Below, in pieces: positions 1 to 34,736 of a DNA stretch of 64,000 nt. The notes under the pieces were generated by a model, which saw only the letters and a list, made by a program, of their open reading frames with translations, was not told the DNA's origin and did not search any database. Numbering within the stretch: the stretch's first letter is position 1; the number at the start of each line of letters is the position of its first letter. Where the stretch lies: positions 11,972 to 75,971 of the forward strand of contig PHBI01000002.1 in assembly GCA_002841945.1 (NCBI GenBank), written 5' to 3'. Position numbers and translations under genes: made by a program. Source of the stretch: Deltaproteobacteria bacterium HGW-Deltaproteobacteria-14 (GTDB lineage Bacteria > Myxococcota_A > UBA9042 > PHBI01).

Positions 1-347
1 GCGTTCGTCGTGAAGACGGCGAGGGCCTCGCCGGCCGGACCAGTCCAGAGCCGGCGGGGCTTCAGCGCGGTGCCATCGAGGAGTTTCGCGGCCTCCGAGG
101 CACCCAGTGCGCTACCCTTCCGCCAGCCGTCGTGTAAGCCGCAGGCATCGTCGAGGACCACGTCGAGGGCGGCGCCGAGGGCATCAGGGGCGGGCTTGTC
201 GGGGTCGAGGGCCACGAGGGCCGTGCGCAAGCGATCGGCGAGCCCCCACGGGGCCTTCTCTGGGGCCGGCAGCGCGTCGAGCGCCGTCGGGGAGAGCAGG
301 TTTCCCCCATGGCGGAGCGAGGTCCAGGCGTCGTGCAGGCTGGTCAT
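1..347 (-). CDS. hypothetical protein, 5' part of the gene only (gene runs off the window start); 4th gene of the SNF2-STAND-HEPN operon
   Basis: ATG at 347-345 overlaps the TGA stop of the upstream HEPN gene (ATGA overlap). Hand translation of the minus frame gives MTSLHDAWTSLRHGGNLLSPTALDALPAPEKAPWGLADRLRTALVALDPDKPAPDALGAALDVVLDDACGLHDGWRKGSALGASEAAKLLDGTALKPRRLWTGPAGEALAVFTTN... with no stop down to position 1. Not in the ORF track because it has no in-window stop. Confidence 0.4.
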   Translation of the reverse strand, partial: MTSLHDAWTSLRHGGNLLSPTALDALPAPEKAPWGLADRLRTALVALDPDKPAPDALGAALDVVLDDACGLHDGWRKGSALGASEAAKLLDGTALKPRRLWTGPAGEALAVFTTN

Positions 348-1597
348 CGCAGGGCGTCCTCGAGTCGGTCGACGATGGCGAGGGCATTCCAGCCCACAGC
401 CGTTCCGTGTGCAAGGGCGTTACGGACGTAGCGAAGCTCGTGCATGCCATCCTTCGTTGAGCGATCGTCTGGCGACAGACCGATAACCTCGTTGAGAGAC
501 GCGGCGTCCCACTCGTCCAAGGACGCGACGCGCCCCAGCGGTGTGAGCCGATGCTCGACGGCGCTCGAGTCTTGGCGGAGCGTCTCGAGTCGCTTGCTAG
601 GGGTGCTCGGTGGTCGCCACGGTGGCGTCGCTAGCACATGGTCGCGGATGCGTTGCTCCAGGTCCATGCAGCGACCGAGGAGGCGATTGGCGAGTGGTCG
701 GCAACCCGACAACGAACTGAGAAAGCGCTTCTGAGGGTGACTTCGGTCGCGATTAAGCAGGGCTCGGGCGAGCCAGGGGGCCGGACGGTGGGAGCGTGCC
801 TCGGCGCCGGACAGGCCGATACCGAGGCGCAACGAGGGGTTGTAGCGGACTTGGTCGAGGCTCTCTCCCAGTTGCTCCTGCATCTCCTTGGGTAGCCTTG
901 CGAAGAGTGCAGCGGCGTGCTCGTTGAGAGCAGCCTCGAGCACCTGGTCGTCACCGCGCATCAGCGGTGGGAGTGCAGCGCCGACATCGATCGCGCGTTC
1001 GATGTCGCCGCCGGAGTGCCAAGCGACGCGCTCGTGCAGGTAGGCGGACCAGCGGTCGTCGTCGTCGTAGACTGCGGTCGCTTCAGCCGGCCACCCCACA
1101 TCGAGACGACAAGCGTCTCCAGGGGCATCGGGATCGCGGACAACCACCAGAAACGCGATTGCCCCTGGGCTCGGCAGCTTCTGGTGCAGGTCCACGATGA
1201 TGCGAAGCTCGTCTATCCAGGTCGCGAACGTCGCCGGGACTGGACTCGCGATGAGCAATCGTGGACGTGCGCATGTGAGCTTCGCAAGCTGCTCTGCTAG
1301 GTTGCGTTGACTCCCTGCCGGCAACCCGAGCCAGCGCCACAGTGAATCGGCCGCGCCTCCGCTACACAGCTCGGCGTCGAGCTCGTCAACGCGCACATAC
1401 CCGCCATCAGGAGCAGCACGACGGATTTCACCTCGCAGGACATCGATGAAGTCTCCTTCATTTGCTCGTGGTGCCTGGACCACGAGCGGGGCCGCTAGGG
1501 TGTCCCACGGGCCGTCTGTCATCCAGTCGGTGAGGCGTCGCGCCTCGATTAGCCGCCAGGTTCGCGACCAACCCGCCACGTGGACGAGTATGTTCAT
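344..1597 (-). CDS. 417-aa protein with C-terminal HEPN-like domain (putative RNase effector); N-terminal ~330 aa unassigned
   Basis: C-terminus ...DGMHELRYVRNALAHGTAVGWNALAIVDRLEDAL carries an R-x4-H-G motif (RNALAHG), typical of Swt1/Abi-type HEPN domains. Start ATG overlaps the stop of the upstream STAND gene (ATGA at 1594-1597). Confidence 0.55.
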   Translation of the reverse strand: MNILVHVAGWSRTWRLIEARRLTDWMTDGPWDTLAAPLVVQAPRANEGDFIDVLRGEIRRAAPDGGYVRVDELDAELCSGGAADSLWRWLGLPAGSQRNLAEQLAKLTCARPRLLIASPVPATFATWIDELRIIVDLHQKLPSPGAIAFLVVVRDPDAPGDACRLDVGWPAEATAVYDDDDRWSAYLHERVAWHSGGDIERAIDVGAALPPLMRGDDQVLEAALNEHAAALFARLPKEMQEQLGESLDQVRYNPSLRLGIGLSGAEARSHRPAPWLARALLNRDRSHPQKRFLSSLSGCRPLANRLLGRCMDLEQRIRDHVLATPPWRPPSTPSKRLETLRQDSSAVEHRLTPLGRVASLDEWDAASLNEVIGLSPDDRSTKDGMHELRYVRNALAHGTAVGWNALAIVDRLEDALR

Positions 1598-4500
1598 CCG
1601 GCGCTCGGCGGTACGATGCGGAGCACCGGGTCATCGACCCGCAGGGGGGCAACCTCGTCCAGCGGTGAACCGCTACGCGTCGGCGAGCGGGGCAGAAGCC
1701 CCAACGCGAGCAGGACCTGAATCGCGTCCCCATCCTGGGGGCCAAAGCGTCTCGGCCCTGCCTCGATGATATCTGCGCGCAACGCCGCAGCGAGGTCGTC
1801 GCCGAACTCTTCGCTCGCACGCGCCACCATGTGGATGAGCTCTCGCTCTCGCAGAGTGAGGTGTAGCTCGCTTCCCTCGGTGGTGAGCTGTGCGGCGATC
1901 TCGCCGTAGGAGGCTTCGAGTGCTGCGACGAGCCCATTGAGCGCCTCGGCATCGAGCGTTGGCGCTTCAGGGTGGGCGGTCGCTAGGAGTTCATCGAATC
2001 GAGCGACGAGGATCGGGATGCCGGCCGTGCACCGCATAATCGGATCGAGCGGATTCAGGGCCGTGAACTCCGCCGCACGACGTCTACGGAGCCAGGAGTC
2101 GACCTGGCCTTTCGACAGGCGGCCCGTGCGCGCGAGGTCGATCGGGCCCGCCCGCGATTGGAGGCGTTGTGCGCCCCGAGCCAGTTCCGACCCACCGATG
2201 AGCAGCACCGGCTCTGTTCTGGACTCGAGTGTTTCGAGCGCATTGATCGCGGCTTTGCCGGTGAGAACGCGCGTACCGTCGCTGCCGTTAGCGAGACCGA
2301 GTCGGCGTGCGAGACCGTTGTCAGCGTCGACCAAGGGGGGCAGCCAGTGTGACGCAACGGCCGCGCCTCGGACGTCGGCCTCGACTGCTAGGTCGCTCAG
2401 GCAGAAGCGGACGGACTCGAGAACGGACTCGCTGAGCAGCCAGGTGGGTTGCTGAGTTCCCCCGCTCGCACGCAGCCTCTTCAGCGCATCTCGGATGTGT
2501 CGCGCCGGTTCCCGCTGGACAAGGACAGGCAGGTGGTGCGGAAACCGCAGTCGGTACTCATCAGGCCGGTGCGAGGTCTGAACGATCAACGATCGATCGA
2601 CAAGCCCACGGAGCTCTTGCCGGACGAGGTCCGCCCACGCCTCGCCGCCAAGCTCGGTCGGATCAAACCCCTCCACCGCCTGGATGTGAGCGAGGATTCG
2701 TTCCGGGGCGTCGTCGATTGCGGCGCTCGGGACACGGCCCTGAAGCTCCATCAAGAGCCCTGCGAAGATGAGCTTGCCTCTCGGGTGACCTACGAAGTTG
2801 AGCCAGCAGATCTCGTAGATGGCGTTCTGAACCGCGTTGCTAAGGAACACGTCGACCACGTCCTTCGCGGTGACGGTCACTTGCTCGCGGTCCTGCCTTG
2901 GTCGCGTCCGTTCGAGGTGCTCGATCAGTGAGAGCCCGAACCGGATGATCACCGCCGGCTGATAGCCGCATCGGAAGGCGATGTTGTCAGCCTGCTCGCG
3001 GGCGTCGATGCCGAGACGCGCAAGGGGACCCGCGGCCAACTCGACCGCGCCGTCCGCGTCGAGCGGGCCGAGGAGGAGGACATCCCCCTTGTTCTCCCAG
3101 ACGCCGCGGTTCTGGTCCGTCCGAAGGTAGCCACAGAACACGAAGCGAATGCGGGGGAGTCCAGCCTGGTCGCGGATCTCTTCGGCGTGTCGGCTCATCC
3201 ACCAGGAAAGGGACTGCTGGCGTTCCGAGGTGGGCGACTCGATCTGCGCGGCGAAGAAGGTGTCTGCTTCGTCGAGCAGGAGCAGCAGGCTAACGTCTGG
3301 ATGCTCCGCCAGTCGCTGAGGCAGAGTGCTCTTCAGATGCTCGACCGGGTCGCTAGCGTCGAGGCCGTTCTTGACGTCGAGCAGTTCACCGACCGCGCTC
3401 AGGATCGCGCGCGCAACAGCCTGCTCGGTCTCCATGCCGGCGATGGAGCAGAACACGACGCGGAGGTTGTTGCCCGACGGCAAGGTCTTCAGATTCGGGT
3501 TGCCCTCGACGAACCGAAGTAGGGCGGTTTTCCCGAGGCGTCGCCCGGAGAAGATGCGGCTGTACGTTGCACGGGTTGCCAGTGCCTCGGCTTCGGTCTG
3601 GCGACCCACGAACATCTCGAGACGTACGTGTTGCCCCTCGACCACCTCGTACGGGCAGAAGCGACTCCACCGCTGTTGCTCCGCAACGAGCTCGAGGAGT
3701 GCGAGGAGCGGATCCGGGGCCTCACCGCCGACGTTCAGCAGGCGGCACAGGTCGAGGTCATCGATAAGGGCGACCGGGCCCGCGAGTGACGCGGTGGCGA
3801 GGCGATCGTGAATCTGACGACGCTGCTCTTCGTGCAAGCCCGGCACGAGTATGAGTGTGAGTTCCTGGTTGGTCGCTTCGCTCTGAATACGACGCGATAG
3901 GGCCGGCGAGACGCTCGGCAGAGGCGAGACCTTGAGCGACAGGGTCCGGTAGCGCGAGATCTGGGGAAGGAACGTCGGGTTGTTGACGCCCTCGACGAGC
4001 CAGGACTGGACGCTCTCGACGTCGATCTGGGAGTAGTGCGTCTTGTCCCCACGAGGCGTGTAGTTGCGCACGTGGCTCGAACGGCGTAGCGCCCTCGCCT
4101 TGAAGACCAGCTCGACGAACGCTTCGCGCAGTTTCGCGTCGTCCTGGTCCTTGAGGCGGCGACGACGCAGCTTTGATGTCGTGTCGATCCATCGGGACAC
4201 GACGTTCTTGACGTCGTTGTCGAGCTGGACGGGCTCGATGAGCCGATTGAGGGCCTCGAGCGGGTCCGGCCATCGCTTGGCAGCGTCGCGGCGATAGAGC
4301 GTGGCCCGATATCGCCGGGGACCGCTACTGTGGGGCCGCTGGCCGAGCGCTCGGAGGAGTGCGCCGATGTCGCCGGATGCCAGAATTCGGCGTGCTTCAG
4401 CCTGGCTCAGCCCCTCTTCGAGCGCCGCGGCGACCAGACGGTCAGTGAGTTGGCCTGCGCGGCGTCGGAGCTTGTCGCGACAGTGGCAGAGCCAAGCGCG

Positions 4501-6960
4501 ATCGAGTGCGGTCAGATGCGTGTCCAGCGCGTGTTCCGTGAGCGCGACCGCGTCGGCCGCGATGGAGGCTTGTCCATCGGCGAGCTCGGCGAGGCGCAAA
4601 TGCAGTTCCCTCAGCTCTGCCGCGAGTTGCTGGAGCTCATCGTCGGATCTCTGTTGGTGACGTTCGAGTTCGCGGACGATGCTTGGAGAGAGATCGTCGG
4701 ATGTCGGAAGTAGGTCAGGACGATGAGAGGCAAGCCAGTCGTCGAGTTCGCCATCCGCGACGACGACCGGCGGCCCCAACAATCGAGCGGCGGCGCGAAC
4801 TGATTCGCTCACGCGTCGCGCATCGAGCTCCGGGGAGCTCGGAGTGAAGTCGGGCCACGCCTCAACCAGCAGCGGGCGGGCATAGACCGATCCTGCGGTG
4901 AAGACGGGCTCCACGATGTCATGGCGCTCGACGCCGAGGTGGCTGCGCACAAGTCCCACGATCCAGTTGTCGATTGGTGCACCACCCGTGGAGGAGCTGG
5001 CGGCGCCGACGGCGAGGTCACTGAATCGGGGTGCGTTGGCTGCACGCCGAGCCTCGGTCTTCGCACGCGCGTGGGCGTCGCGAGCCGTCAGAACAGCGGA
5101 CGCAAGTACCACCAGTTCTTCGACGCCCTTGTCCATATGGCGACGGTCTTTCAGCTTGGCTCCGCCACGGTCGAAGATCGCACTAGACTCCTCCCGTAGT
5201 CGCGCAAGGGTGCTTCTATCCGAGTCCTCGAGCCGAGATTCCGAGATACGCGACAACGTCGGCGCAGCGCCCCCCATGAAGTTGTCCCATGCACGCCGGC
5301 AGTGCGTGGTCTGCACGGTCCCTCCGGCAGCGCTGAAGAGTCTCTTCAGCGCTTCATGCAACGCGCCTGCGGCCTCGTGCTGTGCCGCCTCGAGCGCCGT
5401 GTCGGACAGGGGGGCAGCAAGCTGCCGCTCCAGAACCGCCGCCGCCGACGAGATCCTCTGGTGAACGAGCCACTCCTCAAGCAGCGCCCTGGTGCCCTCA
5501 TTGAGTCGGAGTTGCGTGCACAACTCCGAGATCGTCTCATCAGCGAGCGGGCAGGAGCTCGTGTCCAGGGCGAGCATTACAGCCGCCAGCCAGGTTCCTG
5601 GATAGGCCGGCTCGGCGGAGCCAGACGCGATGGCGACGCGGATACGGCGAACGAGATCTACCGGCAGCTCAGGGGAGGCGGACGGGCCACGGGCGAAGGC
5701 ACGCGTCCAGTCGAGCAACCAGGCCGGAGCGGCTTCGTCGAGTGCCAACTCGGCTGCGGCGGCACCCATGACATAGGCCGTGGCCCATTCCCCCGCTAGC
5801 AGGGCATGGGACTGGGCATCCACGATGGATTCGTTGAAGTCGTCCTTCGTCCACGGCGCCGGAGCGGCTGTGCCGTCCGGCTCGAGCCAGTAGTTGGCAA
5901 CGAAGTCCCTGCGTGGTGTCGCTTCGACCACCTTGCTCCCGACATCGAGTTGCAGCGGCGGACGGTCATCAGGCCGTTCGGGCGTCTGCTCGGTGCTCGG
6001 GGTTTCGTTCGCCGCAGAAACACCGACGTCCGCCGAGAGGTCGCCTGTGTCGGCTGGCCCAACGCCGGCTTGGTCTCCGTCACCCCTGACGAGCGCTTCG
6101 GGCTGGGACGCGAGGACCCTCGCAGGTTCGGCTGAGCCGCCCAGCGTGAAAGGTCGGGGCGGCTCAGCATCGGGACGGGGGAGCGTCGGCGTCAAGGTGT
6201 CAGGGGGCGCCCCCTCTGACGACGCGTCCTGGATGTTGACTTCGTCTTGAGTCGACGCCGCTGTTGTGTACCCGCCCTCATCTTCGGCAACGTCGGCGTC
6301 AGCTGGTTCGTCTGTTTCCGCTTCACCCGCCTTCGGGCCGGCGGCGGTCCACGCTGGCTCGTCGACAGTCGCCAGGAAATCGACAAGCGCTGGCATCGCA
6401 CCTCCGAGGCCGTCGATCACTCGCTCTTGGGTGCCGTTCTCCAGGGCCCAGAACCACCGGAGCCAAGATTCGCCGGGCCCGTCGGGGCCGTCGAAGCCCG
6501 TGGTGTTCGAGGCCCCCTCGGCCAGGATCCTCTCGAGCTCGGCTGCCGCCATCTCGCGTTGCTCCTCCCATCTCCGCGCGCGCCACCCACCCACGCATCG
6601 CCCACTGCGCAGCTCCGCAGCCAGAAGGCGAATGCGCCGCTCAGGGAGCTCGACCACCAACGCGTCGAGTGCCTCCAGGGCGTCCGTGACGCGGGCCCGC
6701 AGATCGTCCATGTCTACCGGCCAGACCTCGTCTGCGCGGCCGTCGTTGCTGAGCGTCTCGTGGGCGACGTGCAACGCGTCGCGCACGCGACGACCTGAGC
6801 GAAGGACGTCGTCGAGAGCCTGCTCGGCCACCGGCCGCGCGACGTCGGCCGCCCGCTCGAGCTCCGCCACAACAGCTCCGAGGCGTGTCACTCCGTCGAT
6901 GTGGCGGTCGATCGATTCCTTGAGGTGCTCACGCAGCTCAGCTGGTGACTGGGGGACCAT
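1594..6960 (-). CDS. 1788-aa STAND/AAA_16-like P-loop NTPase with ~1000-aa N-terminal extension (includes an acidic/Pro-rich low-complexity segment) and ~400-aa C-terminal region
   Basis: The FVGRQTEAEAL motif sits immediately before Walker A (SGRRLGKTALL), and Walker B is LLLLLDEAD. This is the hallmark of STAND/AAA_16 NTPases. The NTPase core lies at about aa 1040-1400. Residues ~150-400 are Ala/Pro/Glu/Asp/Thr-rich. Stop is 9 nt from the SNF2 gene start. Confidence 0.65.
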   Translation of the reverse strand: MVPQSPAELREHLKESIDRHIDGVTRLGAVVAELERAADVARPVAEQALDDVLRSGRRVRDALHVAHETLSNDGRADEVWPVDMDDLRARVTDALEALDALVVELPERRIRLLAAELRSGRCVGGWRARRWEEQREMAAAELERILAEGASNTTGFDGPDGPGESWLRWFWALENGTQERVIDGLGGAMPALVDFLATVDEPAWTAAGPKAGEAETDEPADADVAEDEGGYTTAASTQDEVNIQDASSEGAPPDTLTPTLPRPDAEPPRPFTLGGSAEPARVLASQPEALVRGDGDQAGVGPADTGDLSADVGVSAANETPSTEQTPERPDDRPPLQLDVGSKVVEATPRRDFVANYWLEPDGTAAPAPWTKDDFNESIVDAQSHALLAGEWATAYVMGAAAAELALDEAAPAWLLDWTRAFARGPSASPELPVDLVRRIRVAIASGSAEPAYPGTWLAAVMLALDTSSCPLADETISELCTQLRLNEGTRALLEEWLVHQRISSAAAVLERQLAAPLSDTALEAAQHEAAGALHEALKRLFSAAGGTVQTTHCRRAWDNFMGGAAPTLSRISESRLEDSDRSTLARLREESSAIFDRGGAKLKDRRHMDKGVEELVVLASAVLTARDAHARAKTEARRAANAPRFSDLAVGAASSSTGGAPIDNWIVGLVRSHLGVERHDIVEPVFTAGSVYARPLLVEAWPDFTPSSPELDARRVSESVRAAARLLGPPVVVADGELDDWLASHRPDLLPTSDDLSPSIVRELERHQQRSDDELQQLAAELRELHLRLAELADGQASIAADAVALTEHALDTHLTALDRAWLCHCRDKLRRRAGQLTDRLVAAALEEGLSQAEARRILASGDIGALLRALGQRPHSSGPRRYRATLYRRDAAKRWPDPLEALNRLIEPVQLDNDVKNVVSRWIDTTSKLRRRRLKDQDDAKLREAFVELVFKARALRRSSHVRNYTPRGDKTHYSQIDVESVQSWLVEGVNNPTFLPQISRYRTLSLKVSPLPSVSPALSRRIQSEATNQELTLILVPGLHEEQRRQIHDRLATASLAGPVALIDDLDLCRLLNVGGEAPDPLLALLELVAEQQRWSRFCPYEVVEGQHVRLEMFVGRQTEAEALATRATYSRIFSGRRLGKTALLRFVEGNPNLKTLPSGNNLRVVFCSIAGMETEQAVARAILSAVGELLDVKNGLDASDPVEHLKSTLPQRLAEHPDVSLLLLLDEADTFFAAQIESPTSERQQSLSWWMSRHAEEIRDQAGLPRIRFVFCGYLRTDQNRGVWENKGDVLLLGPLDADGAVELAAGPLARLGIDAREQADNIAFRCGYQPAVIIRFGLSLIEHLERTRPRQDREQVTVTAKDVVDVFLSNAVQNAIYEICWLNFVGHPRGKLIFAGLLMELQGRVPSAAIDDAPERILAHIQAVEGFDPTELGGEAWADLVRQELRGLVDRSLIVQTSHRPDEYRLRFPHHLPVLVQREPARHIRDALKRLRASGGTQQPTWLLSESVLESVRFCLSDLAVEADVRGAAVASHWLPPLVDADNGLARRLGLANGSDGTRVLTGKAAINALETLESRTEPVLLIGGSELARGAQRLQSRAGPIDLARTGRLSKGQVDSWLRRRRAAEFTALNPLDPIMRCTAGIPILVARFDELLATAHPEAPTLDAEALNGLVAALEASYGEIAAQLTTEGSELHLTLRERELIHMVARASEEFGDDLAAALRADIIEAGPRRFGPQDGDAIQVLLALGLLPRSPTRSGSPLDEVAPLRVDDPVLRIVPPSAG

Positions 6961-6969
6961 TTGCTCTTC

Positions 6970-9900
6970 TCACCGTTCGGGAAGGCGGATCTCAACCGCA
7001 ATCGGATAGACGCGTGCCTCGCCGCGCAAGGCGTAGCGTTTGGGGAGGACCTGCTTCAGGGTGCGTTCGGCCTCGGCGGCGAGTCGCTCCTGCACCTGCT
7101 CGTAGTGGCCTTTCCGCAGGACGAGCTCGGCGTCGAGGTCGGCGAGGCGCTTCTGGACTTCCTGGTCGATATCCACGAAGAGGGCCAGCTGTCGCGCCTT
7201 CTCCCGGAGCTTGTCGGCTTCCTTCGCGATCTTTGCGAGTTGGTTCTCGCCGATCGCGCGCTCGAGCTCTTTCTTTCGTCGGTCGAAGCGCTTGCGCTCG
7301 AGATCTCGGACCGACTTGCCCGACGCCTGAAGGCGCAGCACGAGCGACTCTGTGAGTTCGGCTTGGAGGTTCCGCACGTGGGCCTTCACGGCATCCGCGA
7401 CCTCATCCCAGAGGTCGCGTGCGGCGTCGCGGTCGCCGGGAGCTCTTGGCCCATCCGAGGCTTGTGCAGGGCGATTGGACAGCGCCGCCCCGAGGGTGTC
7501 GCCGCGCACAGGCAGCACAATCGTCCGAACCCAATGGTGACACGGCTCGCGGAGCTCGTTCACCGCGAGCTCCTCGACCGTGAGCAGGACAAGGGCATCC
7601 GCATCGCTGGGAACGTCGCCGCTACGGACCGTCCAGCGCGTCGCCGCGCTCGGCCCGCCGGGGAATCGGTAGCGGGCGAAGGTCGACATGACGCGGTGGT
7701 AGAGCGCGTCGCCGAGGTGCAGCAGGCGCGAGTCGGGCTCAGGGAGGTAGACGGGCCGGCCGTTGCGAGGCTGTACGTAGTGTGCTGGGTCAAAGACGAG
7801 GGCGAGCATCGGTCCAGACGGCCCGCCGGCGCGCAGAGTGTGATCGACCAGTTCCTGCCACAGGGCCGGCACGGGGTGCACCAGGCGCTCGCGGCCCGGA
7901 CCGTCGTTCTCGAGGCGGGGACGGCCCGCTTCGATCGCGAGGGCGGTCTCGAGGGTCTCGCGCAGGCTGGCCGGTGAGAGATCGAGCTCGGTCTTGAGAG
8001 CTTCGAGATGAGCGAGGTCATCGGCGCCGGGCAGCGGTGCGCCGGCCGGCAGGTCATCCGCGACATCGGCGTTCGTTGCGTGAGCGTGGCCGATGACGCG
8101 GTCGAGCCTCTCGTCGCTGACCGCGGCATCCTCGTCCTCAGCGAAGTGGGCGAGGATCGCGTCCGAAAAGATCTCATCGGTGATGACGCGGTCTTCGCGG
8201 GTCTGGCTGCGCTTGCGTAGGACCTTGCCAAGAAAGCGCATCGAGGCGTCGTCGGTGCTGTCGAAGTGGAAGATGAAAACGTCACGCTCCTGACCGTGCC
8301 GATCGAGGCGCCCGTTGCGCTGTTCCATGCGGGCCGGGTTCCAGGGGATGTCCCAGTGCAGCATGTGGCGTGCAGCGCGTTGCAGGTTGAGCCCCTCGCC
8401 AGCGGCGTCGGTGGCGAGGAGGATGCGCGCGGGGCCCCGCGGGTCATTGAAGGCGCGCTTCACGGCATCGCGCTCTACGTCGTTCATGCCGCCGTAGAGC
8501 GTGATGAGCCACGGCCCATCGCCATAGCGGGCGCGAAGGTTGGCGCGTAGGTAGTCAAGGCTTGCCAGATACTCCGTGAAGACGATCAGGCGCTCGTCGT
8601 CCCGCCACCCCGTTGGCGTCCTCAGGGAACCATCGATCAGCGCCTCGAGAGCGCGCAGGCGAGCGTCGGCCTTCACTCGGACAGCGCGGGCGTCGACCTC
8701 AGCCATGTGGGATGCGGGGTCGAGACCCGGCGGAACACGCGTCACGCCGATCGCCGCGACGTGACGGGTCACCTCGGCGATTTCCTCGGCAACCGCTTGC
8801 TTCCATTGGCGCAGCCAGGCTCCCACGGTGCGTTCGGCGTGGCGCTGCCGGCTCTCCCGCTCGGCGTCGTTGTCGCTCTCGTCCGCGTGGGCGTTGCGAG
8901 CGCGCACGACCGTCGCCGCGGTGACGGCGTCATCAGGAGTATCGAGCCCCTCGATGAGCGCGAGCCAACTCTGGCCGAACGGCCACGGACCCGACAGAAG
9001 GCGCTTTTGCAGCACCTCCGTCGCGAAGTTCGCCGCCGTACGGTCTTGGTGGTCGGCACCCCGCAGCGCCTTCTTCAACGCACGTCGGAAGTCGCGCACG
9101 GCGAGGTGAAGCGCGCGTTCGTGGGCGCCGAAGTGAAGCGCGGGCAGCGCCTCGACGTGCCGCTCGGAGAAGCGCGGGGCCTCGCCGATGTCGGTGTAAC
9201 ATGTGTTGATCTCGCTCTTTAGCCGCCGGATGACGGCCTCTCCCACGCGACGACGGTCTTCATCGTCAAGGTCGGACTTGCGTGTGAAGCGCACCGGGTC
9301 GAGCGCCTCTAGGAGACCCGAGAACGAGCGTGTATGGCCGTTGTGAGGGGTTGCGGTGAGGAAGATCCGGTGTTCGAACCAGGGCGTGATGCGCTGGAGC
9401 ATCTTCGACAGGTCGGAGTCCGACCCGAAACTCGCGGGGGCGAGGTTGTGGGCCTCGTCGACGATGAGCAGATCCCAGCGGAGCCGTCCGTCCTCGCCCG
9501 GCTCGCTAGTGCTTCGGAACTGCTCGAGAACGTCGGGCTGCTTCAAGTAGTGGTAGCTCGCGATGATTCGCTCGTGACTGCGCCACGGGTTCGCGTCGAT
9601 GCCGATTTCGCGTTGCAGCTTGAGGGTCTGGGGCCTGTCGACGACCTCGAACGGTAGGGCGAACTTCTCCTGCATCTCGTCGCGCCATTGGGTGCGGAGC
9701 GCGGCGGGGCAGAGAACCAGCACACGCCGGATGCGGCGGCGGAGCATGAGTTCACGGAGGACCATGCCGGCCTGGATGGTCTTGCCGAGGCCGACGGCGT
9801 CGGCCAGCATCAGGGCGACGCGGGGCATCTCGAGGGCTCGGAGCACCGGCACGAGTTGGTACGCTTCCGGGTAGATCGCGCCGTAGAGTGGCGAGGCCAA

Positions 9901-10221
9901 TGGCGGCCTGTCCTCGTCGAGCCCGGAGAACGGGAGAGAGGGGGTCAGCGCCGACCAACGCGACGCGCGCACCATCGCGTCGAACTCGCGCGGTTCCATC
10001 GGCGAAGTGTGCTCGATGCGCGGGAGCGCGGCGGGCTCGAGGACATCAGTTCCGAGCTCGACCTCCCAAAGAACCTGGTCGGTCTCGACGCCGGTGCCGT
10101 CGGTATACTCCACCTCGACCAGGTGGTAGCGGCCCGCCTCCGCAGCGTCGAAGGGCTGGACGCCGGTGATCATCGCCCGGCGGTTCCTAACGACCGCCAT
10201 CATGCCCTCGCGCGGGTTCAT
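6970..10221 (-). CDS. SNF2-family (SF2) helicase/ATPase, 1083 aa, with ~400-aa C-terminal extension
   Basis: Motif I DAVGLGKTIQAG, motif II LIVDEAHNL (DEAH), motif III LTATPHNG, and helicase-C motifs (QRNGRLDRHGQ). Long coiled-coil-like C-terminus. Confidence 0.85.
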   Translation of the reverse strand: MNPREGMMAVVRNRRAMITGVQPFDAAEAGRYHLVEVEYTDGTGVETDQVLWEVELGTDVLEPAALPRIEHTSPMEPREFDAMVRASRWSALTPSLPFSGLDEDRPPLASPLYGAIYPEAYQLVPVLRALEMPRVALMLADAVGLGKTIQAGMVLRELMLRRRIRRVLVLCPAALRTQWRDEMQEKFALPFEVVDRPQTLKLQREIGIDANPWRSHERIIASYHYLKQPDVLEQFRSTSEPGEDGRLRWDLLIVDEAHNLAPASFGSDSDLSKMLQRITPWFEHRIFLTATPHNGHTRSFSGLLEALDPVRFTRKSDLDDEDRRRVGEAVIRRLKSEINTCYTDIGEAPRFSERHVEALPALHFGAHERALHLAVRDFRRALKKALRGADHQDRTAANFATEVLQKRLLSGPWPFGQSWLALIEGLDTPDDAVTAATVVRARNAHADESDNDAERESRQRHAERTVGAWLRQWKQAVAEEIAEVTRHVAAIGVTRVPPGLDPASHMAEVDARAVRVKADARLRALEALIDGSLRTPTGWRDDERLIVFTEYLASLDYLRANLRARYGDGPWLITLYGGMNDVERDAVKRAFNDPRGPARILLATDAAGEGLNLQRAARHMLHWDIPWNPARMEQRNGRLDRHGQERDVFIFHFDSTDDASMRFLGKVLRKRSQTREDRVITDEIFSDAILAHFAEDEDAAVSDERLDRVIGHAHATNADVADDLPAGAPLPGADDLAHLEALKTELDLSPASLRETLETALAIEAGRPRLENDGPGRERLVHPVPALWQELVDHTLRAGGPSGPMLALVFDPAHYVQPRNGRPVYLPEPDSRLLHLGDALYHRVMSTFARYRFPGGPSAATRWTVRSGDVPSDADALVLLTVEELAVNELREPCHHWVRTIVLPVRGDTLGAALSNRPAQASDGPRAPGDRDAARDLWDEVADAVKAHVRNLQAELTESLVLRLQASGKSVRDLERKRFDRRKKELERAIGENQLAKIAKEADKLREKARQLALFVDIDQEVQKRLADLDAELVLRKGHYEQVQERLAAEAERTLKQVLPKRYALRGEARVYPIAVEIRLPER

Positions 10222-10291
10222 TCTCGACCTCCGAGGCCATCGGTACCACGGTGTGCGCCGGTCTTCGCGGCGCCGTCGACTGCCGCCGTTT

Positions 10292-10307
10292 GAGCAACGA
10301 GTTGCTC
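10292..10307. promoter_or_regulatory. perfect 7-bp inverted repeat GAGCAAC-GA-GTTGCTC, ~70-85 bp upstream of the SNF2 operon start; candidate operator
   Basis: Palindrome read directly from the sequence, lying in the 378-bp intergenic region 10222-10598. Confidence 0.25.
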
Positions 10308-10447
10308 TGCGATTCCTCGGGGCTGCACGTCGCGACTCCTTGCCCTGGTCCGGCGGGCACCTTGTTCAGCACACCCCGACTCACTCGCTCCAACGGCTTC
10401 TACAAGCTCGACTACCACGATCCAAAGCAAGCCCTCAAGGGGAGCAC

Positions 10448-10464
10448 GGGGGGGCCATCCCCCC
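10448..10464 (-). terminator. G7-CCAT-C6 GC hairpin ~135 nt downstream of the helicase-cluster last gene; candidate terminator separating two operons
   Basis: gggggggccatcccccc at 10448-10464. No T-run, which is usual for high-GC genomes. Confidence 0.25.
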
Positions 10465-10598
10465 TCGCGAACGCTGGAAGGTGTCATGGGCGAGCGTCGC
10501 CAGGTCGCCGCCGACCGCGGCTTCAGGAGTCACCTGGGGCCGCAGGGCTCGGCCCGCCAATGCACGAGCGTGTCACATCCAGGCGTCGAACCGATAGT

Positions 10599-10985
10599 TC
10601 ATGCGCCACGCCCGAAGATGGTCACGAGTTCGGCGACCGCTGATGCGCTCCCGCGATAGTACTTGTCGAGCTGGGCGATGATGACCCAATGCTTCTTCGC
10701 GGTCGGGAGCGCGAGCCAGTACGTGTACGTCAACTCGCCGAACAGCGTGACCGAGGCGGCTCGGTGCGGCTGAGCCGCTCGGTTGGTAGCGTGGCGCCAG
10801 GCGCGGGTGAGCTCGGCGCTCGGGGCGAAGCGGCCCGGGACGGCGAGCTGGGAGGTCGCGTTCTTGCCGAGGGCGTCCTTGCCGCGAAGCATCAGGCCCT
10901 GCACGACCGCCTCGACGACGGCGTTGGCGTCTATCGGGACACGGACGTTGTTGCCTATGTCGAAGCGGGCGCTCGAGGCGGTCAT
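10599..10985 (-). CDS. 128-aa hypothetical protein, paralogous (C-terminal motif) to the ORF at 17232-17453
   Basis: 20 nt downstream of the helicase stop on the same strand. The C-terminus LTYTYWLALPTAKKHWVIIAQL is 12/20 identical to GYEYWLTVPSAEKDRFIVALLL in the 73-aa ORF. Confidence 0.45.
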   Translation of the reverse strand: MTASSARFDIGNNVRVPIDANAVVEAVVQGLMLRGKDALGKNATSQLAVPGRFAPSAELTRAWRHATNRAAQPHRAASVTLFGELTYTYWLALPTAKKHWVIIAQLDKYYRGSASAVAELVTIFGRGA

Positions 10986-11004
10986 GTAGGGACCATTGAA
11001 CCGT

Positions 11005-13089
11005 TCAGGCGGAGGCGGGCGCGGGGGCGCGGAGCAGGTCGGCGAGGAATGGAGATGGCTCGCCGGTCCACGTGACCGTGAGGTCGTCGCGGGCGCGGGT
11101 CATAGCGACGTAGAGGAGGCGGCGCTCGCGAGCGATGGCGTCGTCGCGGTCCTGGGGGTCGGGCATGAGGAGCGCGCGGCGTGTCGGGAGGCGGTCGGCG
11201 CCGACGCCGTGGACGATCACGGCCTTGAACTCGAGCCCCTTGGCGTTGTGCATGGTGGTCATGCGAACGCCGGGGCGGTCATCGCGGGCGGGCTCGTTGG
11301 GGTCGAGGCGGCACACGTCGTGACCGGCGGCGAGGAGCGCGCTCTGAAGGGCGTTGAGCTCGGCGTGGGTGTGGGCGAATACCCCGATCTCTTCCTCGCT
11401 CGCGTGACCCGCGGCCAAGATGCGTGAGACGGTCTGGCAGGCGACGCGACGTTCCTCGGCGACGTTCGACGCGGGGACGAGGGACGGGTCGGGGCCGGTC
11501 ATGACGCTGCGGGTGCCGTGGCGGTCCTCGGTGCCCTCTTCGAAGTCGTCGACGGTGTGGCCGAGGACCTGCTCGGCGGCGCGGCGGATCTGATGGGTCG
11601 TCCGGTAGTTCACGCGGAGGACGCGGGAGCGGCCGCGGGTCTCGACGCCGAGGCGGACGAGGGAGAAGCCGCCTGGGTAGATGCGCTGGCCGGCGTCGCC
11701 GACGAGCATCAGGTGGCCCGGGTGCGCGGTGGTGAGAGCGACGAGGAGGCGGATGTCGGGGACCGAGAGGTCCTGGACCTCGTCGACGATGACGGCGGTG
11801 TAAGGGGAGTGCTGACCGGTAGCGAGCGCCTCGGCGGCGGCGGTGCTGAGCGTCGGGAAGGTGTATTCGTTGGCGACGCGCATCGCGGCGAGGAAGATGC
11901 TGAAGACCTGCCACAGCGCCTTTCGCTGAGCGGCGCCGAGGCCGGTGCCGCGGCCGATGCGGCGGGCGCTGCGGTACTCGGGCCAGGTGGTGATGCCCTG
12001 GGGCATGATGACGTGGTCGAGCTCGGCCTCGATGAAGTCGAAGGGCCACGGCACGGCGGGGGCGTCGGCGATGGCGCGGTGGAGGCGGGAGCGGACCTCT
12101 GCGTTCGTCGTGAGCAGGGTCGGCCGGCGCGATCCGGCGGCGTCGACGATGTCGTAGGCGATGGCCTTGACGGTGCGGACGACGATGCGCTCGCGGGTCG
12201 TGGCGTCACAGAGGAGGTCGAGGAGGCGTTCGACGCTTCGGCAGAGGGCCTTGGTGAACGACGTCAGGAGCACGCGCTCGCCCGTCTGGGCGAGGTAGTG
12301 GGCACGGTGTACTGCGACGATGGTCTTGCCGGTGCCGGCGCTGCCGCTGACCTTGGAAGGGCCGGAGAAGTCGCGGGCGACCATGTCGCGCTGGTCGGGG
12401 TGGAGGAAGGTGATCCAGGTTTCGAGCGGCGCGGCGAGGGCACGCGCGAGGGCGTCGGCGTCCTCGGGGGCGTAGAAGCGCCGCGAGAGGTCGGGCGCGG
12501 CGGTAACCGGCTGATCCGGGGCGATGGGGGTCGGAGGGACGACCAGATCGCCGAGGCCGAGATTGAAAAGGCGCTCGCTGACGTCGGGGGCGAGCGTGGG
12601 GTCGCAGCAGAGGGTGGCGAGATCGTCTTCGGACCTGACCTCGCGAGCGAGGGGCAGCCACTCGGGCGGGAGACCGAGAGACAGGAGGTAGTCGTCCGAG
12701 TGGGCCGCAAAGCGAGGCGGGTCCTGGGTGACCGTGCGGGTGATGACGCGTTCGCGGACGCGCTCGACCTCTTGGATGTCGACGATCTCGAAGGTGCCGG
12801 TCTGGACGTTGCGGCCGGTGCGGCGGCGCTCGGCCCAGCGGTAGGCGTCATCGTGGTGGTCGACGTGGAGTAGGAGCCAGTGGTCACCGTCCCGGTAGAG
12901 GATGGCGCGGAGATCCTGACTGATTCGGGCCGACCAGACGCCGTCGCCGTGGGGGTTCTGGACGCGGTGGAGCTGAATCCCCGGGTGGGCCGGGTTCTCC
13001 TGGAAACGGGCGATGAAGGCGTTGGCCTGTGCCTGCTCAGTGGCGGCGAGGGTGGCGAGTTGGGCGAAGAGGTCGCGTGAGAGGAGCAT
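11005..13089 (-). CDS. UvrD/PcrA-like SF1 helicase (694 aa) with RelE/ParE-toxin-like N-terminal domain
   Basis: Walker A GSAGTGKT and Walker B VIVDEVQDL. The N-terminal ~90 aa (ENPAHPGIQLHRV...VWSARISQDLRAILYRDGDHWLLLHVDHHDDAY) fits the RelE/ParE pattern (...YRiiYri.d..v.il.v.hR.d.Y). Confidence 0.8.
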   Translation of the reverse strand: MLLSRDLFAQLATLAATEQAQANAFIARFQENPAHPGIQLHRVQNPHGDGVWSARISQDLRAILYRDGDHWLLLHVDHHDDAYRWAERRRTGRNVQTGTFEIVDIQEVERVRERVITRTVTQDPPRFAAHSDDYLLSLGLPPEWLPLAREVRSEDDLATLCCDPTLAPDVSERLFNLGLGDLVVPPTPIAPDQPVTAAPDLSRRFYAPEDADALARALAAPLETWITFLHPDQRDMVARDFSGPSKVSGSAGTGKTIVAVHRAHYLAQTGERVLLTSFTKALCRSVERLLDLLCDATTRERIVVRTVKAIAYDIVDAAGSRRPTLLTTNAEVRSRLHRAIADAPAVPWPFDFIEAELDHVIMPQGITTWPEYRSARRIGRGTGLGAAQRKALWQVFSIFLAAMRVANEYTFPTLSTAAAEALATGQHSPYTAVIVDEVQDLSVPDIRLLVALTTAHPGHLMLVGDAGQRIYPGGFSLVRLGVETRGRSRVLRVNYRTTHQIRRAAEQVLGHTVDDFEEGTEDRHGTRSVMTGPDPSLVPASNVAEERRVACQTVSRILAAGHASEEEIGVFAHTHAELNALQSALLAAGHDVCRLDPNEPARDDRPGVRMTTMHNAKGLEFKAVIVHGVGADRLPTRRALLMPDPQDRDDAIARERRLLYVAMTRARDDLTVTWTGEPSPFLADLLRAPAPASA

Positions 13090-13092
13090 TGC

Positions 13093-13449: not shown

Positions 13450-13491
13450 GCTCGCCGGCCGGGTGTTCCGGGGACGGGTGGAACCCCGCTG

Positions 13492-17103: not shown

Positions 17104-17231
17104 CGTGCGTCCTTTTCTTCGGCTCTTGGGGTGGTGCTCCCGAGTCAGTGCACAATGCAGGCCGGCACCTGCACCGTCGACATCGTCGAATACACGATTC
17201 GCAGCCCGTCCTCAAGTAGGGGCTCGCGGGT

Positions 17232-20731: not shown

Positions 20732-20742
20732 CGAGGACGTGA

Positions 20743-23120: not shown

Positions 23121-23133
23121 TTGGCTGCTGAAG

Positions 23134-31454: not shown

Positions 31455-33104
31455 TCACGCGTCGAGGTGGTGCACGGCGGCCGCGGCGAAGGCGTCGTGG
31501 GCGGTCGTCTTGTCGGCGAGGTGCTGCTCCAGCCGGTCGAGCAGGCCCGTCAGCTCATCGACCTTCGCGACGATGCGCTTCTGCTCCGCCATCGGAGGGA
31601 TGCCGACCTGCGCTCCGAGCAGTACCGGCTGGGTCAACTTTCGGCGATTCGTGGTGCCCGAAGTTGCATCAATGAACGGGTAGAACATCAGCATCATGTT
31701 GAGATACTGCGGCGCCACAGCAACGCTCGGTCGCAAGACGTGTGCATGGTTGTTGACCCATGTTCGGCCCTCGATGAGGTAGGAAAATGGCTTGGTTCGC
31801 CCGATGAACGTCTCGTCCTCCACGACCAACACAAGGGGCTCATCGAACAACGCCTCGTCTATCCACCCCACCTGACCGTTGGCCCCATAGTAGGGCACAT
31901 CGCCCGCTCTCTCCGCCCTCTTGGCCTTGCTGACGGGAACACGAAGATGGTCGTAGGAGTAGGCGATGTCGTAGACGCACGCATCGGCCCACTCGACGGG
32001 CGGTTGCCACTCCCGCCGAATCCGCACTCCTGGGTGCTTCGCGAGCCTGATCCGCTTCTGCTGCGCCATTTCCGTGCGCTCGGCCTTCGCCCGCTCCAGC
32101 AGCGCGCTGGCCGGCTCGTCGTTCGGGTCCTGCGGCACCAGCCGACCGCGCACGGCGAGCTGGAGCACGGTCTGCCGCAGCGGGTCCACGTCGGCGGGGG
32201 CGGTGAACAGGTCGTCCATCCGCTCCGCGATGCGGTCCCACGCGACCTCGACCTCATCCGGGGTCTCGGCGTCCCGAAGGGCGGCGAGCGCGGCGTCGCG
32301 CAGTGCCGTGCGGGTGGCCTCGCGGGCGTTCCGGGCGGCCTCCAGCCGGTCGAGCAGGCCCATCAGCTCATCGACGCGGGCGACGATGCGCTTCTGCTCG
32401 GCGAGGGGGGGCACGGGTACCGCGTAGGCCGCCAGGGATCTGCCAGTGAGGTGCTTGATTGTCGCACCCGTGAACAGGTCTGCGAGACGCCCTCCCGACG
32501 AGTCGCACCGCAGGAGGTAGGCCAAGTACCACGACGAGATGCCACAGTAGGGCCGGGCTCGGTGCAGCGCCTTCTGGTAAACCATGCCGGCGACCGACTC
32601 GTCGCAGACCGCAGCACGGCCTGGCTCGCCTCCTTCGCAGATGACCAGGTCGCCGACTGCGAGTGAGCACTCGTCAACCTCACTGTCCTCCAGACGAAGC
32701 TGTTTGAGGTCGTCGAGTACGAACTCGAACCACTGGAGATTGGCGTTCCGAAGGTATGGACGGAGCGGACCCGAGTTCTTTGCCTTGTCGAGCATCTTGC
32801 CCAAGCGAGCATCGGTGATGGTTCCGAATCGTGTCCAAGCCCACCCTTCCGGCACGTCGAACGGAGTCTCGTCCCTCGAAACCCCCGTCGTCGCCTTCGG
32901 GGTTCGGATCTCACCGGCCTTGTGGAGCCGCGCCTTCTCCGCCGCGATGCGCTTGAGCAGCACGCTTGCAGGTTCGTCCTCGGGGTCCTGCGGCACGAGC
33001 TTTCCGCGCACCGCGAGCTGGAGCACCAGTTCCCGCAGTCGCTTCACCCCGTCCGGGGCTTCAGCCAGCGTGTCGAACGCCGCGATCAAGTCCTGCGGCG
33101 TCAT
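31455..33104 (-). CDS. hsdS: Type I R-M specificity subunit HsdS (two TRDs)
   Basis: Two repeats of the conserved ...PPLAEQKRIVA..VDELMGLLD..LE motif. 549 aa. Start overlaps the hsdM stop. Confidence 0.85.
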   Translation of the reverse strand: MTPQDLIAAFDTLAEAPDGVKRLRELVLQLAVRGKLVPQDPEDEPASVLLKRIAAEKARLHKAGEIRTPKATTGVSRDETPFDVPEGWAWTRFGTITDARLGKMLDKAKNSGPLRPYLRNANLQWFEFVLDDLKQLRLEDSEVDECSLAVGDLVICEGGEPGRAAVCDESVAGMVYQKALHRARPYCGISSWYLAYLLRCDSSGGRLADLFTGATIKHLTGRSLAAYAVPVPPLAEQKRIVARVDELMGLLDRLEAARNAREATRTALRDAALAALRDAETPDEVEVAWDRIAERMDDLFTAPADVDPLRQTVLQLAVRGRLVPQDPNDEPASALLERAKAERTEMAQQKRIRLAKHPGVRIRREWQPPVEWADACVYDIAYSYDHLRVPVSKAKRAERAGDVPYYGANGQVGWIDEALFDEPLVLVVEDETFIGRTKPFSYLIEGRTWVNNHAHVLRPSVAVAPQYLNMMLMFYPFIDATSGTTNRRKLTQPVLLGAQVGIPPMAEQKRIVAKVDELTGLLDRLEQHLADKTTAHDAFAAAAVHHLDA

Positions 33105-34638
33105 CCCTGGCCTCCGCCCGCGAGGGCCGCGGCGAGCACCTGGCGCAGCTCCTCACGCAGCGCCGCCGCTGCCGCCCGCTCCTTGTCGAAGCGCGCCAGC
33201 AGGTCGTCGGGGTCCTCGTGATTCGTGCCCGGGGCGTTCGGGTTGGTGATGTCGAGGTTGAAGCCGCGCTCGCGGAGCTGGTCGAGGCTGACCTTCCAGG
33301 CGTTCTCGCTCTCCTGGCGGTCGTTCCACCACGCCTTCTCGGGCGCGAACTCCTCGATGCGCATGGGCTTGGTCTTCGAGTAGCTCTTGTAGCCCGGCGG
33401 GTACGGGTGCTCGTAGTACCAGACCTCGGTGGTCGGGCGGCCCTTCTCGAAGAACAGCACGTTGGTCTTGATGCTCGTGTAGGGCGCGAAGACGCCCTTG
33501 GGCAGCCGGACGATGGTGTGCAGGTCGCACTCGGCCAGCAGGCGCTCCTTGATGCGGGTCTTGACGCCCTCGCCAAACAGCGTCCCGTCCGGCAGCACGA
33601 CGGCGGCCCGGCCGCCGGGCTTGAGCAGCTCGATGATGAGGACGAGGAACAGGTCGGCCGTCTCCCGGGTGCGGAAGTCGGCCGGGAAGTTGTTCTCGAT
33701 GCCGTCCTCCTCCATCCCGCCAAACGGCGGGTTGGTGACCACCACGTCCACGCGGTCGCGCATGGAGATGTCGCGCAGCGGGCGCGACAGGGTGTTGTCG
33801 TGAACCACGCCGACCGGCACGTCGATGCCGTGGACGATCATGTTGGTGACGCACAAGAGGTGCGGCAGCGGCTTCTTCTCGACCCCGCGGACGCTGGCCT
33901 GGAGCTGGGCCTCCTGGTCGGGGGTCCGCACGTCGCGCTTGCGAATGTTCTCGATGGCGCAGGCGAGGAAGCCGCCGGTGCCGCAGGCGGGGTCGAGGAT
34001 GATCTCGCCGAGGCGCGGGTTCACCATGTCCACGGCGAACTGCGTGACCGCGCGCGGGGTGTAGTACTCGCCCGCGTTGCCCGCGCCCTGCAGATCCTTG
34101 AGGACCTTCTCGTAGAGGTCGCCGAAGAGGTGCCGGTTGGTGGCGTCGTTGAAGTCGATGTCGCCCTGCATCTTGTTGATGACCTGCCGCAGCAGGGTGC
34201 CGGACTTCATGTACTGGTAGGCGTCGGCGAACACGCCCTTGACGAGGAGACGGCGGCGGCGGAGAGCCTGCGCGGCCCGCGCCTCCGCGTCGTCGGCCTC
34301 GATCTTGGGGCCGACCTCCATGCCCTTGAGCGCGGAGAACAGGGTGTTGTTGGCGAAGTCGAGCAGCCTGTCCCCGGTGATTCCCTCGGGGTCGGAAGCC
34401 CAGGCGGACCAGCGCAGGTCCTTGGCCGTCTGGGTCTCGCCGCCCTCCTGCCAGGTGACGTTCACCAGGGGGGAGGCGAAGTCCGGCTCCATCAGCGCCA
34501 GCTCTTGCTCGCGGTCGTCCCAGATCTTGAGGAAGAGGAGCCAGACGAGCTGGCCGATGCGCTGGGCGTCGCCGTCGACGCCGACGTCCTTGCGCATGAT
34601 GTCCTGGATGGACTTGACGGTGGTGTTCAGGGACACGG
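33101..34638 (-). CDS. hsdM: Type I R-M N6-adenine DNA methyltransferase HsdM (start probably GTG at 34638 or ATG at 34594, not the ORF-track start at 34798)
   Basis: NPPFG motif IV, DPACGTGGFL motif I, and N-terminal HsdM_N-like QRIGQLVWLLFLKIWDD. The longest ORF would overlap the hsdR 3' end by 61 nt, so an internal start is preferred. Confidence 0.8.
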
Positions 34639-34736
34639 GGTAGGCCTCGGTCAGGGATGGCAGTGGATGGGCGGGGCGACGGGCGGGGCGATGTCGGGGC
34701 GGCGGCGCTCGCCAGCGCCCGAGACAAGGCGGCGCG

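Follow-up and report, generated by a model that had tools for sequence, protein, structure and literature searches.

A HEPN-like protein encoded beside a giant STAND-like ATPase: a candidate two-gene defence module found within and outside DISARM/ARMADA-type operons

The stretch of DNA analysed here (the window) comprises 64,000 nucleotides of contig PHBI01000002.1 from Deltaproteobacteria bacterium HGW-Deltaproteobacteria-14, and carries near its left end a gene for a 417-aa protein (the target) directly downstream of the gene for a giant ATPase of 1788 aa (the giant). A first-pass annotation, made from the sequence alone, had drawn attention to an R-x4-HG motif at the extreme C-terminus of the 417-aa protein and had read it as the mark of a HEPN RNase. 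Both the open reading frame (ORF; 344..1597, minus strand) and its C-terminal sequence, ...KDGMHELRYVRNALAHGTAVGWNALAIVDRLEDALR, which includes LRYVRNALAHG with R392-x4-H397, were confirmed. The features of the pair are as follows:

344..1597, minus strand: target gene, ATG-initiated ORF for a 417-aa protein (putative pseudo-NTPase, helical middle and HEPN-like C-terminal domain)
1073..1597, minus strand: N-terminal alpha/beta domain of the target, residues 1-175, AAA+/STAND-like, proposed to be docking/regulatory (Foldseek, conservation)
797..1072, minus strand: middle helical region of the target, residues 176-267 (positions at least 90% conserved among 139 sequences, helices 179-252)
347..796, minus strand: HEPN-like C-terminal domain of the target, residues 268-417 (DSSP of models, sub-threshold Pfam matches, weak Foldseek matches)
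644..658, minus strand: EQRIR, E314-x3-R318, putative Ex3[KR] second HEPN motif in helix-2 (conservation, model helix 300-321)
404..424, minus strand: RNALAHG, R392-N393-x3-H397-G398, with the Arg and His predicted to be catalytic in a HEPN RNase (conservation, position in the model)
1594..6960, minus strand: giant partner gene, 1788 aa (ORF, ATGA overlap with the target)
2521..3663, minus strand: STAND/AAA_16-like NTPase module, giant residues ~1100-1480 (motifs conserved in 7 orthologues)

The start that yields 417 aa is considered correct because the homologue alignments begin at residue 1, with W14, W25 and W31 conserved, and the target ATG shares the sequence ATGA with the stop codon of the upstream giant gene; a JGI gene call of 350 aa (P0001) was rejected as too short. 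A word-indexed search yielded 17 target homologues, and an exhaustive profile search recovered 298 representative clusters at 50% identity, consisting almost entirely of full-length proteins of 410-450 aa. Family members in the public sources were named nothing beyond "hypothetical protein", and the window protein had zero matches in Pfam, PADLOC and NCBIfam; the family is unnamed, unannotated in these three resources and fairly widespread. A scan of the GTDB species representatives with narrow patterns detected two loci only, both in metagenome-assembled genomes of Myxococcota/Deltaproteobacteria.

Taken alone the R-x4-H motif is not significant, because 16.6% of the target shuffles contained R[NHDQ]xxxH at some position (1.5% within the last 40 aa). 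Conservation was counted on an alignment of 139 full-length homologues with a median identity to the query of 26%. Exactly four columns were invariant, namely E314, R392, N393 and H397 (each 139/139), and G398 (135/139) and W403 (136/139) were nearly so, indicating that the motif singled out by the first-pass annotation is conserved in the orthologues. A lysine or arginine was present at position 318 in 127 of the 139 members, completing an Ex3[KR] motif with E314. The R-x4-H motif was located within the last 80 aa in 154 of 158 family sequences, the remaining four being truncated fragments.

A strong subfamily split was also observed in the family alignment. Most members carry E194, E305, Y352 and H399-Y400, the last two directly after H397-G398 ("RNALAHGHY"), and the window's clade carries H, R, T, T and A at residues 194, 305, 352, 399 and 400, respectively. 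This co-varying cluster adjoins the predicted active site and may reflect a different substrate specificity or regulation.

HEPN domains are characterised by an Rx4-6H signature that is placed where helix-3 ends and has N, D or H, a polar residue, directly after the R, and helix-2 of many HEPN families holds another conserved acidic residue, usually within Ex3[KR] (PMC3710099). AlphaFold2 models of the full-length target (predicted local distance difference test score, pLDDT, 88.2; predicted template modelling score, pTM, 0.84) and of residues 262-417 alone (pLDDT 84) gave the same layout, in which DSSP assigned helix-1 to residues 274-297, helix-2 to 300-321, helix-3 to 379-396 and helix-4 to 403-416, with a 57-residue insert (322-378) containing short helices between the two long helices 300-321 and 379-396. 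In these models E314 lies inside helix-2, R392 and N393 close helix-3, and H397 and G398 open the loop 397-402 that leads to the last helix. The Rx4-6H with its polar N393, the predicted helix-3/loop/helix-4 layout and the Ex3[KR] of helix-2 all agree with the HEPN description, and the family's four invariant residues occupy, in the models, the positions published for the HEPN catalytic constellation (PMC3710099).

Similarity searches gave sub-threshold matches consistent with this. When 72 diverse C-terminal domains were scanned with Pfam, HEPN_Swt1 was matched 12 times, DUF4145 eight, HEPN_RiboL-PSP six and HEPN_MAE_28990 three times; only these four families, all of them HEPN, were matched more than once, every other match being a singleton, and the alignments covered the motif-bearing part of each HEPN profile. 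Among the 36 weak Foldseek matches of the C-terminal domain model in the PDB, five were HepT/HEPN chains (8xeh_D, 1wwp_A, 5yep_C, 7bxo_F and 6m6w_G).

Several results weigh against the HEPN assignment. All of the Pfam HEPN matches fell below the gathering score and covered only helix-3, the loop and helix-4, the best reaching E = 0.0011 and 19.6 bits against a cutoff of 27.5 bits, and both the window protein and the family consensus had zero HEPN matches in Pfam. A profile of the C-terminal domain retrieved nothing relevant from the PDB sequences with hmmsearch, and the HEPN chains found by Foldseek had E-values of 3-9 and template modelling (TM) scores of 0.25-0.35. Covariation measured as mutual information with average product correction (MI-APC) was dominated by the subfamily split and gave weak backing to helix-2/helix-3 packing (I317-M385, R309-E413). 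The full-length target profile produced spurious matches only in an hmmsearch of PDB sequences, the model of the C-terminal domain had no significant Foldseek match in the PDB or BFVD, and when 5.8 billion proteins were searched with the profile of the C-terminal domain (E <= 10), only fragments of the same family were returned, with no relatives from outside it. The HEPN RNase reading of the first-pass annotation was upheld in part, as regards the motif, the Ex3[KR], the helix layout and the recurrence of HEPN Pfam families, Swt1-like first, whereas the profile match it had looked for was limited to sub-threshold alignments local to the motif, and the fold matches were likewise not significant.

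That all HEPN profile and fold matches were non-significant also speaks for a different reading, in which the C-terminal region is not HEPN and forms, in a protein of ORC/STAND type, a helical lid or a tail resembling a winged helix, with the invariant E, R, N and H contacting, for example, the nucleotide of a partner or DNA. The top Foldseek match of the isolated domain was a clamp-loader subunit (8val_E, E = 0.58), and the full-length model aligned over 280-480 columns with ORC, Cdc6 and NLR proteins, their helical domains included. We regard this reading as unlikely, since the position of the motif, the polar residue after the R, the Ex3[KR] and the insert that separates helix-2 from helix-3 fit the HEPN definition, the recurrent Pfam matches belonged to four different HEPN families only, HepT/HEPN chains made up 5/36 of the weak fold matches, and the degenerate NTPase site of the target itself excludes a sensor-2-like role in cis. 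Judging from the motif pattern and the models, the C-terminal region very probably belongs to the HEPN superfamily, and a predicted active RNase is favoured over a non-catalytic HEPN domain because the presumed catalytic residues are the most conserved positions of the family.

The ~330 aa that precede the motif, in which the first-pass annotation had recognised no motif and had seen a possible regulatory or sensor domain, are not featureless, as residues 1 to ~175 are predicted to adopt an AAA+/STAND-like fold devoid of Walker motifs. Foldseek matches of the full-length model included ORC3/ORC4, Cdc6/Orc1, the plant NLRs ZAR1 and NRC2/3, p97 and FtsH, with E-values down to 4e-5 and probabilities of 0.98-1.0, but TM scores of only 0.2-0.3. 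A Walker A motif was absent, GK[ST] being present in only 3 of the 139 members, and no conserved acidic residue of a Walker B motif was detected after strand 113-117 in the same sequences. If the fold assignment holds, residues 1 to ~175 would constitute a pseudo-NTPase. The possibility that the target is a paralogue of the giant, its pseudo-NTPase corresponding to the NTPase of the latter, was rejected (hhalign family-family probability of 0.4%). The middle region is marked by the conserved block W183-x2-Y186-x-H188-x-R190-x2-W193-x3-G197, plus D217/E221.

The giant carries a Walker A motif, SGRRLGKT (3526-3549), and a Walker B motif, LLLLDEAD (3262-3285), accompanied by FVGR..E..L, PRIRFVFCGY, GDVLLLGPL and LRFPHHLP. 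Across seven orthologues the patterns SGR[RK]LGK[TS], hLDEAD, PRIRF..GY, [DE]VLxLxPL and LRFPH[HQ]LP were conserved; AAA_22 matched one giant orthologue with E = 1.1e-5, and a PDC-S27 match was obtained at 0.0017. The motif order is, we assume, that of STAND/AAA_16-type NTPases, the STAND class being assigned from the order of the motifs only.

A further point against the target as effector is that this P-loop module is the sole recognisable part of the giant, so that its at least 1000 other residues could hold the real effector. The HEPN-derived domain of the target would then act as a sensor or adaptor, either by binding RNA or nucleotides or by cutting a particular regulatory RNA, and the effector would reside in the ~1000-aa N-terminal or the ~300-aa C-terminal part of the giant, for neither of which a match was found. 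Non-catalytic HEPN domains do exist, MtlR being an example (PMC3710099), and the target has extra conserved blocks (W183..G197 and D217/E221) beyond its motif. Non-catalytic HEPN families, however, characteristically lose Rx4-6H (PMC3710099), and in the target family E314, R392, N393 and H397 are the sole invariant residues, which argues for catalysis. In addition, no effector signature, be it of a nuclease, a protease, TIR or another kind, appeared in Pfam and PADLOC scans of the giant, and we consider the sensor or adaptor role improbable. A second HEPN motif, R[NHDQ]xxxH, was also looked for in the giant and was absent. The conserved RLRFPH of the giant (R1470-H1475) was rejected as a HEPN motif, given the proline inside it and the hydrophobic residue after the R, and it may instead represent the His motif of a STAND winged helix.

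The pairing of the two genes was compared by tblastn and gene calls at nine informative loci, hereafter referred to by their handles (window/L006, the latter being the source contig, L005, L001/2, L003, L007, L010/11, L012/13, L014-17 and L004); L018, which is fragmented, and L009, which is too short, were left out of the count. The giant was located upstream of the target in all nine loci, down to a target identity of 28%, and the start-stop overlap between the two genes was mostly 4 bp, reaching 11 bp in L014. DISARM-type genes flanked the pair in three of the nine: the window presents the order DrmD-pair-methyltransferase-349-aa protein-YprA-like helicase, L005 presents DrmD-pair-methyltransferase, and in L010 a distant pair stands directly before UvrD-DrmA-DrmB-DrmC. 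The other six (L001, L003, L004, L007, L012 and L014) lacked DISARM-type genes within the available flanks, and their neighbours include AbiEii, GmrSD_N and ParE/PIN toxin-antitoxin genes; the defence context around the window pair consists of DISARM/ARMADA, Zorya I, GmrSD and type I restriction-modification genes. With the pairing present in 9/9 loci while DISARM-type genes flank it in only 3/9, the pair is, judging from gene order, an autonomous, mobile two-gene module that has repeatedly lodged in DISARM/ARMADA operons.

Two of the loci showed further particularities. In L014 the pair (2055 aa and 442 aa) is found between three tyrosine recombinase genes (552-3485) and integrase/IS21 genes (12909-17776), the IS21 genes being those of Mu-transposase/IstB. 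The identical 442-aa protein has records in 38 blocks of the collection, suggesting either a mobile element or an often-sampled organism. In L004 only a C-terminal remnant of the giant (1041-2135; residues ~1380-1742, 47% identity) remains upstream of an intact 420-aa HEPN-like gene, and this remnant of the pair sits among ParE and PIN toxin-antitoxin genes; the locus may represent a decaying module, or a target kept on its own.

In the window, the pair is embedded in an operon to which the following genes also belong:

6970..10221, minus strand: DrmD/ArmA-type SNF2 helicase, 1083 aa, 9 nt upstream of the giant (NCBIfam, PADLOC)
1..347, minus strand: 5' end of a DrmMI/PglX-like methyltransferase gene that runs past the window edge (ATGA overlap with the target stop)
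11005..13089, minus strand: UvrD-like helicase, upstream of the DrmD-type gene (PADLOC)

The SNF2 helicase scored 625.9 bits against the NCBIfam DISARM_DrmD equivalog (cutoff, 610) and matched PADLOC DrmD with E = 1e-184; it is host-operon context and lies outside the conserved pair, because it is absent beside the pair in L001, L003, L007, L012 and L014. An ORF of 128 aa is located between it and the UvrD-like helicase. The methyltransferase, which is complete in L006, has 1621 aa, is of the MmeI/Eco57I type (MmeI_Mtase, Eco57I, N6_Mtase) and shares 59% identity with the L005 gene; this L005 orthologue matched REase_MTase_IIG (1e-73) and DrmMI (4e-46) in PADLOC. Beyond it, L006 encodes the 349-aa protein and then another that exceeds 2000 aa and combines DEAD, Helicase_C and MZB (DUF1998) domains; the latter could be either a DrmA-DrmB fusion or ArmC-like. 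Based on these domain matches, the host operon (window positions 1-17103, minus strand, plus L006) appears to be a DISARM class I/ARMADA-type array.

These results modify the place that the first-pass annotation had given to the target, as the toxic effector of the operon. The target gene does not end the operon, as the methyltransferase gene starts at its stop codon, and ATGA overlaps couple it translationally both to the giant upstream and to the methyltransferase downstream. The operon has DISARM class I/ARMADA-type components of its own, and the target belongs to a pair that is also found where DISARM is missing. The arrangement in the window and in L005, where the pair lies between DrmD and the DrmMI-like methyltransferase with genes overlapping or nearly abutting, could nevertheless mean that the pair is a dedicated DISARM/ARMADA accessory that regulates or targets the SNF2 helicase, the methyltransferase or the YprA-like helicase, and the distant L010 pair before UvrD-DrmA-DrmB-DrmC brings such loci to three of nine across about 28% identity. 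This seems the least probable of the explanations considered here, as six of the nine informative loci have no DISARM-type gene in the available flanks, the descriptions of ARMADA and DISARM include no such components, and ARMADA II functions with only four genes.

Other defence genes were identified further along the window. A 1203-aa protein (13492-17103, minus strand) contains two SF1 helicase modules in tandem, AAA_11/AAA_12 first and a UvrD-like one second, and gave a zinc-finger-like match at its C-terminus; its PADLOC matches were MkoA (1.5e-40) and NERD+UvrD candidates, and it may belong to a system based on helicases, of the Mokosh type or another. This protein is followed by a Zorya-like operon of type I that is complete (18035-26181, plus strand), comprising ZorA (898 aa), ZorB (379 aa), ZorC (413 aa; weak, with an EH signature) and ZorD (1015 aa, PADLOC 4.7e-149), by a GmrSD/DUF262-type type IV restriction enzyme (26400-28352, minus strand; PADLOC Orf5 2.4e-94, mREase_IV 1.6e-77), and by a type I restriction-modification system (31455-37067, minus strand) with HsdS (31455..33104), HsdM (33101..34798) and HsdR (34737..37067). 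A 2028-aa protein (38623-44709, minus strand) combines DUF4011, an SF1 helicase (AAA_11/12), an MTES_1575 Vsr-type restriction endonuclease and DUF3320; the MTES_1575 architecture is sometimes fused to Swt1-clade HEPN domains (PMC3710099). The G+C content shifts at ~44000-46000, from ~0.65-0.70 in the defence island (1-44 kb) to ~0.72-0.76 (46-64 kb), which suggests that the island was horizontally acquired. No tRNA genes were found in the whole window.

One of the closest known systems is the Swt1/Abi2 clade of HEPN domains (HEPN_Swt1, PF18731), which in bacterial proteins of the Ava_2192 type is fused to an AAA+ ATPase in restriction-modification operons with SNF2 helicases and also occurs in STAND-ATPase fusions (PMC3710099, Table 1). 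The target shares with this clade the R-N-x3-H-G near the C-terminus and the Ex3[KR], HEPN_Swt1 was the best and most frequent sub-threshold match of its family, and it is likewise tied to an AAA+/STAND-type NTPase and to an SNF2-helicase/methylase defence operon. In contrast, no match of the family reaches the Pfam gathering score, DUF499 is not matched, the family has its own uniform architecture of ~410-450 aa, and the active NTPase would be located on the separate giant, with a degenerate NTPase-like domain on the target.

The anticodon nucleases PrrC and RloC consist of an N-terminal ABC-type NTPase and a C-terminal HEPN domain, and PrrC is encoded in the EcoprrI type Ic restriction-modification locus; such NTPase and HEPN proteins linked to restriction-modification represent a recurrent, multi-pronged defence theme among at least 16 HEPN clades (PMC3710099). 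The likeness lies in a putative NTPase-controlled HEPN RNase in the middle of a restriction-modification-type operon, here with the pair between helicase and methyltransferase genes. The differences are that the NTPase is STAND/AAA-like and not ABC/Rad50-like and is encoded in trans, that the N-terminal domain of the target has no P-loop, that no sequence similarity between these nucleases and the target was detected, and that six of the nine pair loci have no linked restriction-modification or DISARM genes.

With Avs and other bacterial NLR-like systems the pair has in common a large STAND-type NTPase with sensor-like extensions, a nucleic-acid-degrading effector (predicted in our case) and a location in a defence island, and the N-terminal domain of the target resembles plant NLR and ORC NTPase folds. 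The effector of Avs is normally fused to its NTPase, whereas here the two would be separate proteins, the effector bearing a pseudo-NTPase domain of its own; no Avs matches were obtained for the pair in PADLOC or NCBIfam.

The window operon resembles DISARM class I and ARMADA (Bell et al., bioRxiv 10.1101/2025.09.15.676423; PMC13463889, mBio) in its DrmD/ArmA-type SNF2 helicase, DrmMI/PglX-like methyltransferase, YprA-like DEAD/Helicase_C/DUF1998 protein and a nearby UvrD-like helicase. The giant and the HEPN-like protein, on the other hand, are not among the described components (DrmA-E, DrmMI/II and ArmA-D), neither had a match in PADLOC or NCBIfam, a giant ATPase or HEPN protein is described in neither paper, and HEPN and ATPase go unmentioned in the ARMADA description (Bell et al.). 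GAP1 of the DO-GTPase conflict systems, whose gene directly follows that of its NTPase partner, is a three-domain protein with variable C-terminal effectors (Kaur et al. 2020, PMC7159879), and the target shares the three-domain build and the gene position. In Pfam the family consensus matched GAP1-M only, with E = 8e-4 and 20 bits against a cutoff of 24 bits, over half of the profile. Membership in GAP1 was rejected, as the match is partial and sub-threshold, the partner is a Walker A/DEAD-type ATPase and not a double GTPase, and no GASH or FNIII domain is present.

Considering the conserved residues, the predicted architecture, the gene pairing and the genomic contexts, the explanation we prefer, with a probability of roughly 0.55, is that the target provides the RNase subunit, and a giant STAND-like ATPase of ~1800-2050 aa the partner, of a two-gene defence module that is autonomous. 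The RNase activity, the docking, the activation by the ATPase and the role in defence that we infer would be combined in the following way. The giant ATPase would sense infection, and the binding or hydrolysis of ATP would change its conformation or oligomeric state; the target would dock on it via the pseudo-NTPase and middle domains. The rearrangement of the giant would then bring two HEPN domains together, a step that is proposed because HEPN RNases generally need two facing Rx4-6H motifs. Composite HEPN active sites built from two domains are found in RNase L, Csm6, Cas13 and HepT. The assembled site would be a metal-independent endoRNase cutting host and/or phage RNA, leading to growth arrest or abortive infection. 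Inside a DISARM/ARMADA operon the module could act as a second line of defence, an RNA-level back-up to DNA targeting analogous to PrrC in EcoprrI.

Carried to its full extent, the proposal would be that of an undescribed, widespread (~300 clusters) two-gene anti-phage system in which a HEPN RNase is switched on in trans by a STAND-like NTPase via a co-assembling degenerate NTPase domain and which, in DISARM/ARMADA operons, serves as a PrrC-like guard that fires when phages neutralise DNA targeting. This extended version is tentative, and we hold it to be less likely than not.

The coupling of HEPN RNases to NTPases in restriction-modification contexts is known already, and it is the split architecture, with an active NTPase in trans and a dead NTPase-like domain on the RNase subunit, together with the recurrent insertion in DISARM/ARMADA operons, that appears undescribed in the literature searched. 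If the preferred explanation is true, the pair would be an unnamed defence module missed by Pfam, NCBIfam and PADLOC alike, and would provide another solution of the "NTPase switch plus HEPN RNase" type, in this case on separate polypeptides and with a dead NTPase-like domain presumably used for docking. Its recurrence inside DISARM/ARMADA offers a testable case of layered immunity, with RNA targeting behind DNA targeting, and DISARM/ARMADA loci annotated by their core genes only may hold extra functional cargo.

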